Positions 17,063-46,364 of a stretch of DNA of 64,000 nucleotides are shown piece after piece. The notes beneath the pieces are model-generated. The model was not told the origin of the DNA. It searched no databases and saw only the letters and a program-made list of their open reading frames with translations. Positions within the stretch are counted from its first letter, which is position 1. Every line of letters begins with the position of its first letter. Both the position numbers and the translations under genes were made by a program. The stretch lies in the NCBI RefSeq assembly GCF_050920415.1, contig NZ_CP169309.1, one strand, 5' to 3'. The stretch comes from Escherichia coli (lineage in GTDB: Bacteria; Pseudomonadota; Gammaproteobacteria; Enterobacterales; Enterobacteriaceae).

Positions 17063-17152
17063 GCGATCAGGAAGACCCTCGCGGAGAACCTGAAAGCACG
17101 ACATTGCTCACATTGCTTCCAGTATTACTTAGCCAGCCGGGTGCTGGCTTTT
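17063..17152 (+). ncRNA. ryhB: RyhB small RNA (iron-sparing, Fur-repressed)
   Basis: gcgatcaggaagaccctcgcggagaacctgaaagcacgacattgctcacattgcttccagtattacttagccagccgggtgctggctttt recognised as RyhB, with intrinsic terminator hairpin gccagccgggtgctggc plus T-run; lies between yhhY and yhhX as in E. coli. Confidence 0.92.
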
Positions 17153-17274
17153 TTTTTGATCTTTCGTTTTCAATTTATCCACGGGAAGTGCTTGTGATCG
17201 TTATGCGCACTCCAGTAGGAACCACGTCCGCTTTGCGCTAAGGTGTAAATAATCACCTTAAAAAGGACGAAATC

Positions 17275-34058: not shown

Positions 34059-35576
34059 ATGGAAAGAATAATGCAAAACAAAAAATGGATTTTGACCTCG
34101 CTGGTAATGGCTTTTTTCGGCATCCCCATACTGGCGCAATTTTTGGCAGCGGTTATTGCCATGCTGGGGGCCGGGCTTGCCGCTATTCTTGAGGCTTGCA
34201 ATTTACTCTTTACGCCAACAATTTATCTTCTACTCAACGTCTTTATGCTGACGCTGGGGGCGATAATCCTATTTTTCTCTGGTCGCGTGTGGGCCGGTGA
34301 TAGCGCACCAGAAAACAGAGAAATAGCCGTCTGGCGGCAATGCTTTTTTCTTTTACCTGCACTGTTAACTCTGGTTGGCTGGATAATCACGCTACATCTG
34401 GCAGATTATCAATTTCGCCAAATGGGAGCAGGTTGGTTGGCAGAGCTTATGCTCCCCTGGCTGGGAGTTTTGTTAGTCTCATTAGTCGGAGGTGAGTTCT
34501 GGTGGATAGTCATTATACCCGTTGGTGCGCATATTAGTTTTTCACTGGGGTATGGCTGGCCGACCAGATATCCTTTAACCGGCACGTACGGGTTACGTTG
34601 CCGTAATTCCCTCCTGTTTATCCTTCTCATGCTTGGTTTTATCGCTGGTTATCAGGCTTATTTATATAAACAGATTAATCCCGGCGTCGGTGTGCGTGAA
34701 AATATTGATATCTGGGCCTGGCGACCCGATAAACTCAATAATCAACTGCCGCCACTGCGTGGTAAACCGCAAATTCAGTTTACACAAAACTGGCCGCGAC
34801 TCGATGGTGCTACAGCGGCGTACCCAATTTATGCTTCTGCCTTTTATGCGTTGAGCGTTATACCGGAAGATTTCCACACTTGGGAATATCTGGAGAACTC
34901 TCGTACCCCCGATGCATATAACAGGATTGTTAAAGGTGATGCCGATATTATTTTTGTGGCGCAACCTTCCGGTGGGCAGAAAAAACGCGCAGAGGAATCG
35001 GGCGTCACTTTGAACTACACTCCTTTCGCCCGTGAAGCATTCGTTTTCATCGTCAATGCGGATAACCCGGTTAATTCCCTGACTGACCAACAGGTGCGTG
35101 ACATCTTCAGTGGCGCAATTACCAACTGGCGCACGGTTGGCGGTAACGATCAGGAGATCCAGACCTGGCAACGCCCGGAAGACTCTGGCAGCCAGACAGT
35201 GATGCAATCGCAGGTCATGAAAAATGTCCGCATGATCTCGCCGCAGGAAACCGAAGTGGCAAGCATGATGGAGGGAATGATTAAAGTTGTTGCCGAATAC
35301 CGTAATACAAACAACTCAATAGGCTACACCTTCCGCTATTACGCAACACAAATGAACGCCGATAAAAATATAAAACTGCTAGCTATTAACGGTATTGCAC
35401 CGACTGCGGAAAATATTCGTAACGGCAAATATCCGTATATCGTCGATGCCTTTATGGTAACGCGGGAAAATACTACGTCAGAAACACAAAAACTGGTCGA
35501 ATGGTTTTTAACGCCGCAGGGGCAGAGTCTGGTGGAAGATGTGGGTTATGTACCGTTGCATACAACAATGAAATAA
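34059..35576 (+). CDS. Uncharacterized membrane protein: N-terminal polytopic membrane domain fused to a C-terminal PstS/PBP-like substrate-binding domain
   Basis: 505-aa ORF; residues ~1-200 are hydrophobic multi-TM; the C-terminal half (DGATAAYPIYASAFYAL...IIFVAQPSGGQKKRAEESG...WQRPEDSGSQTVM) looks like a phosphate-binding-protein (PstS-like) fold; no equivalent intact gene recalled at this position in K-12 (where the yzgL pseudogene sits); start may instead be the Met at 34071. Confidence 0.7.
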   Translation: MERIMQNKKWILTSLVMAFFGIPILAQFLAAVIAMLGAGLAAILEACNLLFTPTIYLLLNVFMLTLGAIILFFSGRVWAGDSAPENREIAVWRQCFFLLPALLTLVGWIITLHLADYQFRQMGAGWLAELMLPWLGVLLVSLVGGEFWWIVIIPVGAHISFSLGYGWPTRYPLTGTYGLRCRNSLLFILLMLGFIAGYQAYLYKQINPGVGVRENIDIWAWRPDKLNNQLPPLRGKPQIQFTQNWPRLDGATAAYPIYASAFYALSVIPEDFHTWEYLENSRTPDAYNRIVKGDADIIFVAQPSGGQKKRAEESGVTLNYTPFAREAFVFIVNADNPVNSLTDQQVRDIFSGAITNWRTVGGNDQEIQTWQRPEDSGSQTVMQSQVMKNVRMISPQETEVASMMEGMIKVVAEYRNTNNSIGYTFRYYATQMNADKNIKLLAINGIAPTAENIRNGKYPYIVDAFMVTRENTTSETQKLVEWFLTPQGQSLVEDVGYVPLHTTMK

Positions 35577-35601
35577 CTTTTGAGAGAACGGAATCAGCGC
35601 G

Positions 35602-36594
35602 ATGAATAAATTCATAGGCGTTTTACTGCTAGGTGCGGTTTTACTGGCGGGATGTGTCGACCGGGAAGGGTACTATAACAGCGTCAGGGAAGAAGAAAGC
35701 CATGGACTGACGTCTCTGCGGGGGCAACCAGAATTACGTTACAGCGATGATTGGTCAAGATGGCCGAGAGTGTACGGCGCTACAGCCTTATACCCGCTGT
35801 ATGCTTCCGCGTATTATGAATTAGTACCCGAGCCAAAAGATAAGGATCGAACCTCGCTGGCCTGGCAGGCGTATGGTTTGCAACAAACCCGAACAGCTGA
35901 AGCCTACGATAGTCTGATCAAGGTTACCGCGACGGTTATTTTTGTTGCACAACCGTCGGAAGGACAGAAAAAACGTGCAGAAGAAGCAGGCGTTAAACTG
36001 AAATATACCGCTTTCGCCCGCGAAGCCTTTGTCTTTATCGTTGATATCAAAAACCCGGTTAATTCACTTAGCGAACAGCAGGTCAAAGACATTTTTAGCG
36101 GTAAAGTGAGTCGCTGGAATAAAGTGGGCGGCGGTGACGAAAGTATAAAAGTCTGGCAGCGGCCAGAAGATTCTGGAAGCCAAACGGTTATGAAGGGACT
36201 GGTTATGCAAGATACTCCAATGCTGCCAGCCAAAAAATCCACTGTTATCGATCTTATGGGCAGTTTAATTACCGAAGTCGCCGACTACCAAAACACAACA
36301 TCTTCCATTGGATACACCTTCCACTATTACGTCACGCGTATGAATGACAATATGCTCAAAATGCGCAAACAGATCAAACTGCTGGCTATAAATGGCGTTG
36401 CACCTACAGAGGAAAATATCCGTAACGGCACTTATCCGTACATAATTGATGCTTATATGGTGACGCACGAAAACCCTACGCTGGAAACGCAGAAATTCGT
36501 CGACTGGTTTTTAAGCCCGCAGGGACAGCAATTGGTAGAGGATGTGGGCTATGTGCCGATTCATGACGCATCATACGAATCATCAGTGCAATAA
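35602..36594 (+). CDS. Uncharacterized lipoprotein with PstS/PBP-like substrate-binding domain (paralog of the C-terminal domain of the upstream gene)
   Basis: 330-aa ORF; lipoprotein signal MNKFIGVLLLGAVLLAGC (lipobox LAGC); long near-identical stretches with the previous gene (VIFVAQPSEGQKKRAEEAGV...FAREAFVFIV...WQRPEDSGSQTVM). Confidence 0.75.
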   Translation: MNKFIGVLLLGAVLLAGCVDREGYYNSVREEESHGLTSLRGQPELRYSDDWSRWPRVYGATALYPLYASAYYELVPEPKDKDRTSLAWQAYGLQQTRTAEAYDSLIKVTATVIFVAQPSEGQKKRAEEAGVKLKYTAFAREAFVFIVDIKNPVNSLSEQQVKDIFSGKVSRWNKVGGGDESIKVWQRPEDSGSQTVMKGLVMQDTPMLPAKKSTVIDLMGSLITEVADYQNTTSSIGYTFHYYVTRMNDNMLKMRKQIKLLAINGVAPTEENIRNGTYPYIIDAYMVTHENPTLETQKFVDWFLSPQGQQLVEDVGYVPIHDASYESSVQ

Positions 36595-37196
36595 TGATGA
36601 ATAAAATCAGACTTTATATTCCTCCGTTAATTCTTGGTTTTTTTATTGTGCCGTTGTTGGTGTGGCCGACGGTGGTTGCGCTGGCTGCTTCTGTTATCAC
36701 GCTGAGTTTTCTGGGAGAGATACTGTTCTCTATCCCGCTCATGATCAGGCATATTTCGCTTCTGCAATTACAACTATGGTTATCGGCTGAATATGCGCTT
36801 TTCTGCTGTGCAATGGTGGGCGTTGGTTGGCAATTTGCGCGCAGAACGCCACCTGAATCGAAAAGCAGACTGCATTGTTGGCTGGTATTTGCACCGGTTT
36901 ATTTCTGGTTGCTCCTGTGGAATATCATTTTCTATGTCGCGCCAGCGAATATTGCGTTGCTGGAGAATATGCGCAGTTTCTTTCTGACAGTTGTCTGGCT
37001 CCCACTAAATTTTTCACCATTTTGGTCCCAACCGTGGATTGACTTTGTCGGTCCAATAAGCGCACAGCTTGGTTTTGCGTTGGGATATTATTGCCAGTGG
37101 CGTAGCAAAAATAGAAGCCAGATACGGAAGTGGAGTGAGTGGGGAACGTGCCTGAGTTTTGTTACGTTGGGTATGATGGCGTGGGCTTTGCGGTAA
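36594..37196 (+). CDS. Uncharacterized polytopic inner membrane protein (resembles the N-terminal membrane domain of the 505-aa protein)
   Basis: 200-aa hydrophobic ORF whose start overlaps the upstream stop; segment VGPISAQLGFALGYYCQWR resembles VGAHISFSLGYGWPTRY in the first island protein. Confidence 0.6.
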   Translation: MMNKIRLYIPPLILGFFIVPLLVWPTVVALAASVITLSFLGEILFSIPLMIRHISLLQLQLWLSAEYALFCCAMVGVGWQFARRTPPESKSRLHCWLVFAPVYFWLLLWNIIFYVAPANIALLENMRSFFLTVVWLPLNFSPFWSQPWIDFVGPISAQLGFALGYYCQWRSKNRSQIRKWSEWGTCLSFVTLGMMAWALR

Positions 37197-37247
37197 TTCC
37201 CTGACTCAAAAAGTAGGTCAGATTGTTGACAAAGTGCGCTTTGTTCA

Positions 37248-38626
<1,379 letters not shown>

Positions 38627-41600: not shown

Positions 41601-42359
41601 ATGAAACAAACACAACGTCACAACGGTATTATTGAACTGGTTAAACAGCAGGGTTATGTCAGCACCGAAGAACTGGTGGAACACTTCTCCGTCAGTCCGC
41701 AGACTATTCGTCGTGACCTCAACGAGCTGGCGGAGCAAAACCTGATCCTGCGTCACCATGGCGGCGCGGCACTGCCTTCCAGTTCAGTTAACACGCCGTG
41801 GCACGATCGTAAGGCCACCCAGACCGAAGAAAAAGAGCGTATTGCCCGCAAAGTGGCGGAGCAAATTCCTAACGGCTCGACGCTATTTATTGATATCGGC
41901 ACCACGCCGGAAGCGGTGGCGCACGCGCTGCTTAATCACAGCAATTTGCGCATTGTGACCAACAATCTCAACGTCGCTAACACGCTGATGGTAAAAGAAG
42001 ATTTTCGCATCATTCTTGCAGGTGGCGAATTACGCAGCCGCGATGGTGGGATCATTGGCGAAGCGACGCTCGATTTTATCTCCCAGTTCCGCCTTGATTT
42101 CGGGATTCTGGGGATCAGCGGCATCGATAGCGACGGCTCGCTGCTGGAGTTCGATTACCACGAAGTTCGCACCAAACGCGCTATTATTGAAAACTCGCGC
42201 CACGTTATGCTGGTTGTCGATCACTCGAAATTTGGCCGTAATGCGATGGTCAATATGGGCAGCATCAGCATGGTCGATGCCGTCTACACCGACGCCCCGC
42301 CACCAGCGAGCGTGATGCAGGTGCTGACAGACCATCATATTCAGCTGGAGCTGTGCTGA
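41601..42359 (+). CDS. glpR: Glycerol-3-phosphate regulon repressor (DeoR family)
   Basis: 252-aa ORF starting MKQTQRHNGIIELVKQQGYVSTEELVEHFSVSPQTIRRDL. Confidence 0.95.
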   Translation: MKQTQRHNGIIELVKQQGYVSTEELVEHFSVSPQTIRRDLNELAEQNLILRHHGGAALPSSSVNTPWHDRKATQTEEKERIARKVAEQIPNGSTLFIDIGTTPEAVAHALLNHSNLRIVTNNLNVANTLMVKEDFRIILAGGELRSRDGGIIGEATLDFISQFRLDFGILGISGIDSDGSLLEFDYHEVRTKRAIIENSRHVMLVVDHSKFGRNAMVNMGSISMVDAVYTDAPPPASVMQVLTDHHIQLELC

Positions 42360-43929
42360 TCCTGCACGGCTTCCCACGTCAGACCAAAACGCGCCAGGTA
42401 TTTGCGTAGCCGATCCGCGTCGTTGACGCTGGCTTTGCCCTGGCGCGAAACATCAAAGAGTTCACGCCCGGCAGCGGAAAGCGATTTTGCCTGACGGCAG
42501 ATAGCGATAACGTGTTCCAGTTGCAGCCGATCAAAGAGGTCGATGTTTTCCGCTTCAGCGCCCAGTAGCTGTGTAAGCACGGAAGGGCGGCTCTCCTGCC
42601 AGTTATAGCGCAGACGGTTTATCTCATCTTCTACGGTTTCAAGGGTGATACGCCCACTATCGGCAAACGTCGCCATGCGTGTGACGCTGGCAGAAAGCTC
42701 GCGAAAGTTACCGCGCCATGTTGCCTGGGGAGATGTCGCAAAGGCCAGCCAGGCGCGCCTCGCTTCGGTGTTAAAACGCACGCTGTCGCCGGTGAGTGAG
42801 GCGTGGCGCTCCACTTCATAATCCAGGTTCGGTTCAATATCTTCCTGGCGCTGGCGTAGCCCCGGCAGGGTGAAGGTCCAGAGATTGATCCGCGCGTACA
42901 GGTCTTCGCGAAATTTGCCTTCGGCAACCAGCTGACGCAAATCGCGCACCGTTCCGGCGATCAGCTGAAAATCACTGCTCACCTGGCGATCGCTACCAAA
43001 CGGGTAAAAGGTTTTCTCTTCAATGGCTTTCAGCAACATCGCCTGTTCGTCTGCGCCCAGTTCGCCAATCTCATCAAGAAACAACATGCCACCGTTGGCG
43101 CTGCGTAATAATCCTTCACGAGATTCCCGCGCCCCGGTGAACGCGCCTTTCACATGACCAAACAGCGCGGACATGGCGGTATCGCCACGCAGAGTGGCGC
43201 AGTTCACTTCCACAAACTCGCCGCTAAACTGATGCCTCGCCTGTTTTAACTCGAAGATGCGTCGTGCCAGAAACGACTTTCCCGCACCGGTTGGGCCGTT
43301 GAGCAGGATCGGCGCGCGGGATCTAATCGCCACTTTTTCGATCTGCTCAATCATGCGGTTGAAATGGGAGTTACGCGTGGCAATGCCGGATTTGAGGAAA
43401 TCGAGGGTTTGCTGGCGTTCTTCGGCAAAGCGGCTGGCAATAGCGTTATAACGGCTTAAATCGAGATCGATAATCGTCACCGCACCAGGGCTGTTGGGCT
43501 GTTCTTTTTTACGCGGTGGCGAAGATTGTATTAACCTGGCGGGCAGGTAACGCGCTTCCGCCAGCAGAAACCAGCAAATCTGCGCGACGTGGGTACCGGT
43601 GGTGATGTGAATTAAATAGTCTTCTTTATCAGGTTCGAACGCGTAACCACGGGCGAAATCATGCAGGCAGGCGTAAACCTCCTCGAAATCCCACGGGTTA
43701 TGCAGTTCAATCTCAACGCTCACCACTTCTGTTTCTGGCGAAACATTGGCGATATCGCGTTTAAGCGTTTCAAACAGCGAGCGTCGTGCAACAATTCCAG
43801 TCGATTGATGACTAACGATTCTTGCTGACATAGACAGAGTGACGGACGCCATTTCGACCATCGCTGACTGCCGCGCCCGGCATAATCCAGTACGGTGCCG
43901 ACAAAGCCAAAAGCCACTGTTTTACGCAT
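42341..43929 (-). pseudogene. rtcR: Sigma-54-dependent activator RtcR, apparently frameshifted near codon 50
   Basis: A 69-aa ORF (43720..43929, MRKTVAFGFVGTVLDYAGRGSQRW...LELLHDAR) carries the RtcR N-terminus; the rest (…RSLFETLKRDIANVSPE…, AAA+ GPTGAGKS, C-terminal HTH) continues in another frame as ORF 42341..43861. Confidence 0.7.
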
Positions 43930-44063
43930 CTTAGATATCCTTATAAAAGACGATATTTCATTATCGGTAAATTGGCTTCGTGGAAAATCTCCGTTTACGG
44001 ACTGGAAGATTTTATCTATTTAAAAACAATGAATTAAAAAATTAATCTGCTTATTTAATTTTC

Positions 44064-44079
44064 TGGCACGACGGTTGCA
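44064..44079 (+). promoter_or_regulatory. Sigma-54 (-24/-12) promoter of rtcBA
   Basis: TGGCACgacggTTGCA matches the RpoN consensus TGGCAC-N5-TTGCA, about 40 bp upstream of rtcB. Confidence 0.8.
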
Positions 44080-44117
44080 ATTATCAGGACAGCAAACAAC
44101 GAAAAGAGAAAAACAAA

Positions 44118-45344
44118 ATGAATTACGAATTACTGACCACTGAAAATGCCCCGGTAAAAATGTGGACCAAAGGCGTGCCGGTAGAGGCCGATGCGCGTCA
44201 GCAACTTATTAATACGGCGAAGATGCCGTTTATTTTCAAACATATTGCGGTAATGCCGGATGTACACCTGGGTAAAGGTTCCACCATTGGTAGCGTGATC
44301 CCAACCAAAGGAGCGATTATTCCGGCGGCGGTGGGGGTAGATATCGGTTGTGGAATGAACGCACTGCGAACTGCGTTAACGGCGGCTGACCTGCCTGAAA
44401 ACCTGGCGGAGCTGCGTCAGGCGATTGAAACTGCCGTGCCGCACGGACGTTCCAATAATCGTAGCCGTCGTGATAAAGGCGCATGGGAGCATCCGCCTGT
44501 TAACGTCGATGCTAAATGGGCCGAGCTGGAAGCTGGTTATCAGTGGTTAACGCAAAAATATCCGCGTTTCCTTAACACTAATAACTATAAACATCTGGGA
44601 ACGCTGGGAACGGGTAACCACTTTATTGAAATCTGCCTTGATGAGTCGGACCAGGTGTGGATTATGCTGCACTCCGGTTCACGCGGAATTGGTAATGCCA
44701 TCGGGACTTACTTTATCGATCTGGCACAAAAAGAGATGCAGGAAACGCTTGAAACGTTGCCATCGCGTGACCTGGCGTACTTTATGGAAGGTACGGAATA
44801 CTTTGATGATTACCTGAAAGCGGTGGCCTGGGCGCAGCTTTTTGCCAGCCTTAACCGCGATGCGATGATGGAAAATGTGGTAACGGCGTTGCAGAGCGTT
44901 ACGCAGAAAACGGTAAGACAGCCACAAACGCTGGCGATGGAAGAGATCAACTGTCACCACAACTATGTGCAAAAAGAACAGCACTTTGGCGAAGAGATCT
45001 ATGTGACGCGTAAAGGCGCGGTGTCTGCGCGTGCTGGTCAATATGGAATTATTCCCGGTTCGATGGGGGCGAAAAGCTTTATTGTCCGTGGGCTGGGAAA
45101 TGAAGAGTCGTTCTGTTCGTGCAGCCACGGTGCCGGGCGGGTAATGAGCCGTACTAAAGCGAAAAAACTGTTCAGCGTGGAAGATCAAATTCGTGCCACC
45201 GCGCATGTGGAATGCCGTAAAGATGCCGAAGTGATCGACGAAATCCCGATGGCGTATAAAGATATCGACGCGGTGATGGCGGCACAAAGCGATCTGGTGG
45301 AAGTTATCTACACCCTGCGTCAGGTGGTGTGTGTAAAAGGATAA
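44118..45344 (+). CDS. rtcB: RNA-splicing ligase RtcB
   Basis: 408-aa ORF starting MNYELLTTENAPVKMWTKGVP, recognised as RtcB. Confidence 0.96.
   Translation: MNYELLTTENAPVKMWTKGVPVEADARQQLINTAKMPFIFKHIAVMPDVHLGKGSTIGSVIPTKGAIIPAAVGVDIGCGMNALRTALTAADLPENLAELRQAIETAVPHGRSNNRSRRDKGAWEHPPVNVDAKWAELEAGYQWLTQKYPRFLNTNNYKHLGTLGTGNHFIEICLDESDQVWIMLHSGSRGIGNAIGTYFIDLAQKEMQETLETLPSRDLAYFMEGTEYFDDYLKAVAWAQLFASLNRDAMMENVVTALQSVTQKTVRQPQTLAMEEINCHHNYVQKEQHFGEEIYVTRKGAVSARAGQYGIIPGSMGAKSFIVRGLGNEESFCSCSHGAGRVMSRTKAKKLFSVEDQIRATAHVECRKDAEVIDEIPMAYKDIDAVMAAQSDLVEVIYTLRQVVCVKG

Positions 45345-46364
<1,020 letters not shown>

Follow-up and report, generated by a model that had tools for sequence, protein, structure and literature searches.

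A 10-base deletion frameshifts rtcR, the gene of the sigma-54 activator of rtcBA, in one Escherichia clone

[quoted passage not shown] This repression is lifted by tRNA halves ending in a 2',3'-cyclic phosphate (PMC7790460, PMC9650030). A variant of RtcR that is reduced to residues 187-532, and hence has no CARF domain, shows constitutive activity both in vitro and in vivo (PMC9650030; PMC5175333), and a CARF domain supplied in trans still represses the AAA+ core (PMC9650030). In Salmonella, transposon insertions in rtcR at or before nucleotide 48 (codon 16) turn the operon on (PMC7790460, Table S1). The UAS and IHF sites in the rtcR-rtcB intergenic region are also known (PMC9650030, PMC5175333).

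In the window, i.e. the whole stretch of 64,000 nucleotides of Escherichia coli DNA that was analysed, rtcR lies on the minus strand in the neighbourhood glpEGR - rtcR <> rtcBA - malT (ORF list), which is the same locus as in E. coli K-12 (glpR - rtcR <> rtcBA - malT). It is transcribed divergently from rtcBA, which has the same -24/-12 sigma-54 promoter as in K-12. This promoter (44064..44079, plus strand; TGGCAC-N5-TTGCA, sequence TGGCACGACGGTTGCA) had been described as intact in the original prediction, and indeed it is the single exact match to the motif across the whole window and shows no differences from the K-12-type sequence. Both enzymes are encoded by intact genes on the plus strand, rtcB (408 aa, 44118..45344; ORF list), whose exact protein the public collection contains in 834 blocks, and rtcA (338 aa, 45348..46364; ORF list and comparison with annotated genomes). 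The divergent rtcR-rtcB intergenic region upstream of the promoter (43930..44063), where the RtcR enhancer and the IHF sites are expected, is identical to that of strain 2017-02-2CC, whose rtcR is intact. A scan for sigma-70 promoters and terminators from 43300 to 44130 found none, and an Rfam scan gave no match in the rtc region. The AAA+ domain with its GAFTGA motif and the C-terminal region are likewise shared with K-12 RtcR, and the part of the gene behind the junction described below shows ordinary allelic divergence from K-12, with a dN/dS of 0.067. In contrast to K-12 RtcR, the ORF in the window is split at codons 49-52, and no ORF encodes a complete CARF domain.

On the other side of rtcR, glpR (41601..42359) is an intact ORF of 252 codons, the copy of which is flagged as 'frameshifted' in the K-12-type comparison genome; the 3' ends of glpR and rtcR are convergent and overlap by 19 bases. 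Between glgP and glpD, the window carries an insertion (34059..38405) with genes for two PstS-family phosphate-binding paralogues of 505 aa (34059..35576) and 330 aa (35602..36594). The insertion also contains a hypothetical gene of 200 aa (36594..37196) and a transposase region that is IS110/IS621-like. In the complete genome MFDS1022581, an IS3 splits the second PstS gene, of which the window has an intact copy, and this explains a difference of 1.3 kb in length between the two. The sole Rfam match in the window that reaches the gathering threshold is the small RNA RyhB (17092..17156, plus strand; RF00057, 83 bits).

The 10-base deletion and the two reading frames

In the original prediction, rtcR was regarded as frameshifted near codon 50 (43760-43800), with the conserved RtcR N-terminus in one frame and the remainder in another around a short ctcgct repeat. 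This was examined in an alignment of the window with four other genomes, in which three intact alleles from a K-12-type strain and two nearer relatives were included. According to this alignment, 10 bases (CGCCCGCTCA) of the intact rtcR alleles are missing from the window, since the intact sequence CACGA[CGCCCGCTCA]CGCTCGCTG corresponds to CACGACGCTCGCTG in the window. The frameshift is thus confirmed and defined as one 10-base deletion with its junction at 43781..43785 (minus strand), the exact position being ambiguous within the ACGC microhomology. The junction string of the carriers is TTGCACGACGCTCGCTGTTTG. The deletion takes the last base of codon 49 together with codons 50-52; the frame read from the native start (frame A) by coincidence keeps D49-A50-R51 and then leaves the native frame. 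The lost 10-mer matches the next 10-mer (CGCTCGCTGT) at 7 of 10 positions, and because of this similarity replication slippage between imperfect tandem 10-base repeats would be the obvious origin of the deletion, with the repeat that had been noticed at the break as its substrate. Two apparent gaps in the rtcR of some intact alleles were rejected as candidates for further indels, as they were clustered substitutions that had been misaligned.

Instead of one continuous ORF of about 532 codons, the window contains two ORFs of 69 and 506 codons in different frames. The 5' fragment (frame A, 43720..43929, minus strand) starts at the native ATG 43929, reads MRKTVAFGFVGTVLDYAGRGSQRWSKWRPSLCLCQQESLVINRLELLHDAR followed by 18 unrelated residues, and ends at the TGA at 43722-43720, which is codon 70. 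Its 69-aa product (MRKTVAFGFVGT...LELLHDAR, then CLKRLNAISPMFRQKQKW up to the stop) consists of native residues 1-51 and the 18 out-of-frame residues, and it matches positions 1-58 of NF038308 in a profile search. The 506-aa ORF (frame B, 43861..42341, minus strand) begins with an out-of-frame leader of 26 foreign residues from ATG 43861 (43784..43861, minus strand; ORF list) and has native RtcR sequence from RSLFETLKRD on, carrying RSLFETLKRDIANVSPE... and then the AAA+ and C-terminal domains. ATG 43861 stems from a synonymous CGC>CGA change, which is also present in the intact allele of strain 2013C-4282. The native part of this ORF (residues 53-532; 42341..43783, minus strand) comprises CARF strands 3-6, the AAA+ domain with GAFTGA, and the C-terminal DNA-binding region, and contains no second stop or indel. 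Together, the two ORFs encode all native RtcR residues but S52. With an indel that is not divisible by three and a premature stop, the gene has the hallmarks of a frameshift pseudogene. When compared with thousands of intact orthologues, the lesion is a defined mutation and no chance pattern.

Domains severed by the break

The identification of the gene as rtcR in the original prediction is supported by profile searches. The long ORF scores 785.4 bits on the NCBIfam RtcR equivalog NF038308, for which the cut-off is 650, and the alignment reaches position 529 of 530 and includes the DNA-binding region. The AAA+ domain is represented by a match to PF00158 (Sigma54_activat) with an E-value of 1.5e-50 over model positions 2-165 of 168, and both the Walker A motif GPTGAGKS and the GAFTGA motif are present in the translation. 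The match to Pfam PF06956 covers positions 51-183 only of 183, positions 1-50 being absent, and no polypeptide in the window joins a complete CARF domain (PF06956) to the AAA+ domain.

A sequence search of the PDB found AAA+ relatives only and no solved RtcR N-terminal domain. For this reason, an AlphaFold model was predicted from an alignment of 37 sequences, consisting of the intact E. coli domain and 36 full-length sequences out of 836 collected relatives of the N-terminal domain. The model (pLDDT 91.8) has a six-stranded alpha/beta fold, in which strand 1 (residues 3-9) is followed by two short helices within residues 20-35, strand 2 (43-48), a helix (50-66), and strands 3-6. The top Foldseek matches of the model are Csm6, Card1, Can2, Csa3, Cam1, and ring nucleases, with E-values down to 3e-7, and together with the six strands they place the N-terminal domain of intact RtcR in the CARF superfamily. 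Two motifs form the ligand pocket of CARF domains, one at the end of strand 1 and the other behind strand 4 (PMC4012209). In the model, the break falls right after strand 2, at the start of helix 50-66, and the frameshift would thus cut off two core CARF strands, along with half of the predicted pocket, from the remaining protein. The severed segment also holds three of the four columns that are invariant in the 37-sequence alignment (D15, W27, and P29; the fourth is G115) as well as the near-invariant G11 and R28. According to Pfam, NF038308, the alignment, and the model, the CARF domain is disabled in the remnant and the AAA+ and HTH regions are kept.

The high profile score has consequences for genome annotation. 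As 785 bits exceed the NF038308 cut-off of 650, the remnant is called a normal RtcR by PGAP, which in the closest complete genome (MFDS1022581) uses ATG 43861 as the rtcR start for a normal 506-aa RtcR and raises no pseudogene flag for the frameshifted rtcR in NZ_CP169399.1. The PGAP label on the 506-aa remnant is an annotation trap that hides the rtcR lesion. In GCA_000194175.2, the same gene is annotated as a 461-aa CDS starting at a GTGGTGA sequence and a 69-aa CDS with PF06956, and in GCA_024148645.1 no CDS is called at the frameshifted rtcR.

Start signals and the fate of RtcR

A null or near-null RtcR is the most likely outcome of the deletion in the strain of the window and its close relatives, and this reading is regarded as probable. 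In this scenario, strand slippage between imperfect 10-base repeats would have removed 10 bases and frameshifted rtcR after codon 49. Ribosomes would load at the strong native start, make a 69-residue peptide and stop, and 480 codons, encoding the rest of the CARF domain, the AAA+ motor, and the DNA-binding domain, would be left without an effective start. Because of this, little or no working RtcR would be present. Damaged tRNA could then not bring about the opening of the rtcBA sigma-54 promoter, itself intact, and rtcBA would therefore stay at a basal, non-inducible level. As far as can be judged from the sequence, probably no active RtcR is made, and rtcBA would consequently be silent.

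This reading is based on the start signals around the break. The Shine-Dalgarno duplex of the native rtcR start at 43929 has an energy of -6.0 kcal/mol, compared with only -3.5 kcal/mol for ATG 43861. From position 43861 up to where the AAA+ domain begins, the in-frame ATG and GTG codons all have values of -3.5 kcal/mol or weaker, the background mean of the gene being -2.1, and by these duplex energies no restart codon with a ribosome-binding site above background is found downstream up to the AAA+ domain. Three upstream in-frame ATGs sit inside the translated 69-codon ORF. At the end of this ORF, the sequence GTGGTGA (43720..43726, minus strand) places two in-frame GTG codons (native V72 and V73) over the TGA stop and is a possible termination-reinitiation site; the GTG codons have no Shine-Dalgarno match, with a duplex energy of +0.2 kcal/mol.

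Several points speak against complete loss of function. The GTGGTGA overlap of stop and start is an arrangement able to support low-level reinitiation, and since engineered RtcR without CARF is constitutively active, even little truncated product could matter. Furthermore, the 480 native codons are still open and free of a second lesion, rtcB and rtcA are also intact, and the changes private to the lineage as well as the dN/dS values resemble those of intact alleles. The private changes of the remnant are 5 synonymous to 2 nonsynonymous, compared with ratios of 8:2 and 7:2 in intact alleles, and in a pairwise comparison with the nearest intact allele, dN/dS is 0.14 for the rtcR remnant and 0.12 for rtcB. 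Neither secondary lesions nor a raised dN/dS, as expected of relaxed selection, were found in the remnant. The open frame fits a very young pseudogene and equally well continued function. The lack of decay would fit a very recent deletion and offers no positive evidence of decay. As the carriers are near-clonal and their values are like those of intact alleles, the selection tests (pairwise dN/dS and private changes) were set aside as uninformative; with carriers that are almost identical, they say only that the deletion is recent.

An attempt to date the deletion by a near-identical intact allele failed, as no close intact ancestor was found. Three loci with an intact rtcR (L012, L014, and L016) encode the exact RtcB of the window and differ from it by about 30-65 substitutions in rtcR and 38-52 in rtcA. 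In L014, rtcB is identical at the nucleotide level (0 differences), but rtcA differs at 52 nucleotides and rtcR at about 65. Judging from this pattern, in which an identical RtcB goes along with tens of substitutions in rtcA and in an intact rtcR, the rtc locus is a recombination mosaic. Compared with K-12, synonymous divergence amounts to 0.26-0.32 in rtcA and rtcR vs 0.11 in the nearby glpG.

The main alternative is a truncated, deregulated RtcR, made from ATG 43861 (506 aa) or by reinitiation at a GTG (461 aa), which would activate rtcBA without a ligand; it is considered unlikely. As CARF is the repressive module, a truncated RtcR would be expected to be constitutive, as are RtcR 187-532 and, in Salmonella, the operon in the rtcR insertion mutants mentioned above. 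The remnant resembles these variants (RtcR-deltaN or RtcR-deltaCARF, residues 187-532, and the codon 16 insertions) in that the integrity of CARF is lost and the AAA+ and DNA-binding regions are kept. The fully open downstream ORF with complete AAA+ and C-terminal regions, the GTGGTGA overlap, and the lack of drift in rtcR, rtcB, and rtcA are also in line with a truncated activator. In contrast to the constructs, which were expressed from plasmid promoters with ribosome-binding sites or, in the case of the Salmonella insertions, with the transposon driving expression, the remnant in the window has no recognisable start signal. No candidate start has a Shine-Dalgarno sequence above background, the GTG codons being at +0.2 kcal/mol, and the upstream ATGs would be occluded by ribosomes on the 69-codon ORF, which has a much stronger site. 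ATG 43861 is older than the deletion, as it occurs in the intact allele of 2013C-4282, and hence is no adaptation to it. A further difference from the constructs is that the remnant keeps two thirds of CARF, which is probably unable to fold; without two of its six core strands, the domain may misfold and be degraded with the protein rather than just free the AAA+ domain. Finally, the intact ORFs say little about selection, as the carriers are near-clonal.

The more far-reaching proposal that the deletion represents a natural 'always-on' RtcR, with the GTG or ATG 43861 start driving constitutive rtcBA expression, is rather improbable; it would follow from published precedent, and no signal in the window sequence speaks for it. 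If it were true, a clade I lineage would have a permanently raised RNA-repair capacity and possibly a changed tolerance to antibiotics that target the ribosome or to toxins that cleave tRNA. The allele would then be the first natural constitutive RtcR allele, a counterpart of the laboratory RtcR-deltaN, and a ready tool for Rtc biology. The loss of the activator and a truncated activator without the full sensor domain had both been foreseen in the original prediction, and these are the readings left by the evidence. A null RtcR is favoured over a truncated activator because the remnant has no positive expression signal and its partial CARF domain may misfold.

It is very improbable that the 69-aa and 506-aa products reassemble non-covalently into a ligand-responsive CARF domain. 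Such a split RtcR would be in accordance with the two ORFs encoding all native residues but S52, with the position of the break in the model just past strand 2 at the start of helix 50-66, and with the repression of the AAA+ core by CARF in trans (PMC9650030). However, it would need an efficient start at ATG 43861, which has no ribosome-binding site and lies inside another translated frame, and the two pieces would bear 18 and 26 foreign residues at the very break.

Spread of the deletion and Rtc loss in E. coli

The 5' region of rtcR is fully matched in 4,794 of 5,426 complete E. coli genomes, and among the matches listed the other full-length matches span 451 bases vs 441 in the window. With a 70-base query centred on the junction, an ungapped span was found in one complete genome only, MFDS1022581, among the matches listed, and the 269 other full-length matches to this query all need a 10-base gap. 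Of about 4,800 complete E. coli genomes in which this region is present, a single one carries the deletion among the matches listed. Exact copies of the 506-aa product are present on 36 contigs (54 index blocks) of the wider public collection, and one of these accessions is E. coli M863, a strain classed as Escherichia clade I (PMC4182557). The deletion was found in ten fetched loci (L001, L005-L007, L013, L015, L017-L020), which come from at least eight assemblies or runs; over 6.3-7.2 kb, each of them is 0-1 SNP away from the window. The carriers are GCF_050920435.1, GCA_000194175.2, GCA_001264195.1, GCA_024148645.1, GCA_030295195.1, GCA_036681285.1, GCA_054591655.1, and run ERR10854069. The deletion probably dates to a recent ancestor of one Escherichia clone, to which M863 of clade I and the complete genome MFDS1022581 belong. 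In a literature search for an rtcR frameshift, no description of this allele was found.

The lesion is reproducible across separate sequence records, and because separate assemblies share the identical rtcR deletion, it is a real mutation and no artefact; it is fixed in a single clone that is young and geographically spread. A sequencing or assembly error in a strain that truly has an intact 532-codon rtcR is scarcely conceivable and was rejected, as the identical 10-base deletion recurs in at least eight separate assemblies or runs, the deposition of which spans more than a decade, the window assembly is structurally distinct from its closest carrier genome MFDS1022581, which has an extra IS3, and a loss of 10 bases outside a homopolymer is an atypical platform error.

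One further metagenome locus, L008 (ERZ27316997 k141_134722), was left out as evidence. Its sequence equals that of the window from glpG over glpR to rtcR, the deletion included, and shows 5-7% divergence in rtcB, rtcA, and malT past an intergenic breakpoint near window position 44087. The contig stems either from a recombinant strain or from a chimeric assembly of the metagenome.

A programmed -1 ribosomal frameshift that restores full-length RtcR would in theory bring the frames together again if it took place past the junction and ahead of the stop, but its probability is practically nil and it was rejected, as frame A contains no slippery heptamer (X XXY YYZ) upstream of the stop, orthologues are single ORFs in which no frame change is conserved, and the other full-length matches listed from about 4,800 genomes span the extra 10 bases, so that there is no conserved recoding site.

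Losses of the Rtc system are frequent in E. coli. A 2025 pan-genome study puts rtcR and rtcB among the 'extended-core' loci (PMC12595684). Some match to the rtcR-rtcB-rtcA unit is present in 5,424 complete genomes, of which 4,837 keep at least 80% of it and the remaining 587 (about 11%) less than 80%; sampled genomes below 80% keep about 20% of the unit as stubs. In Ecol_448 (L010), a large deletion has left only 3' stubs of rtcR and rtcA, strain ES7 (L011) carries an IS1 in rtcB, and strain 2013C-4282 (L004, NZ_CP027579.1) has a frameshift in rtcB. The deletion in the window resembles these natural losses as an independent inactivation of a dispensable locus and differs from them in that only the regulator is hit, both enzymes being intact, and in that it is confined to one near-clonal lineage. 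Accordingly, the clone-specific rtcR frameshift is an ordinary lineage-specific loss in a well-known system that E. coli often discards. The lineage with M863 and MFDS1022581 is hereby flagged as one in which the RtcBA response is probably not inducible, which matters for the use of these strains in work on Rtc-dependent tolerance to ribosome-targeting antibiotics or tRNA damage.
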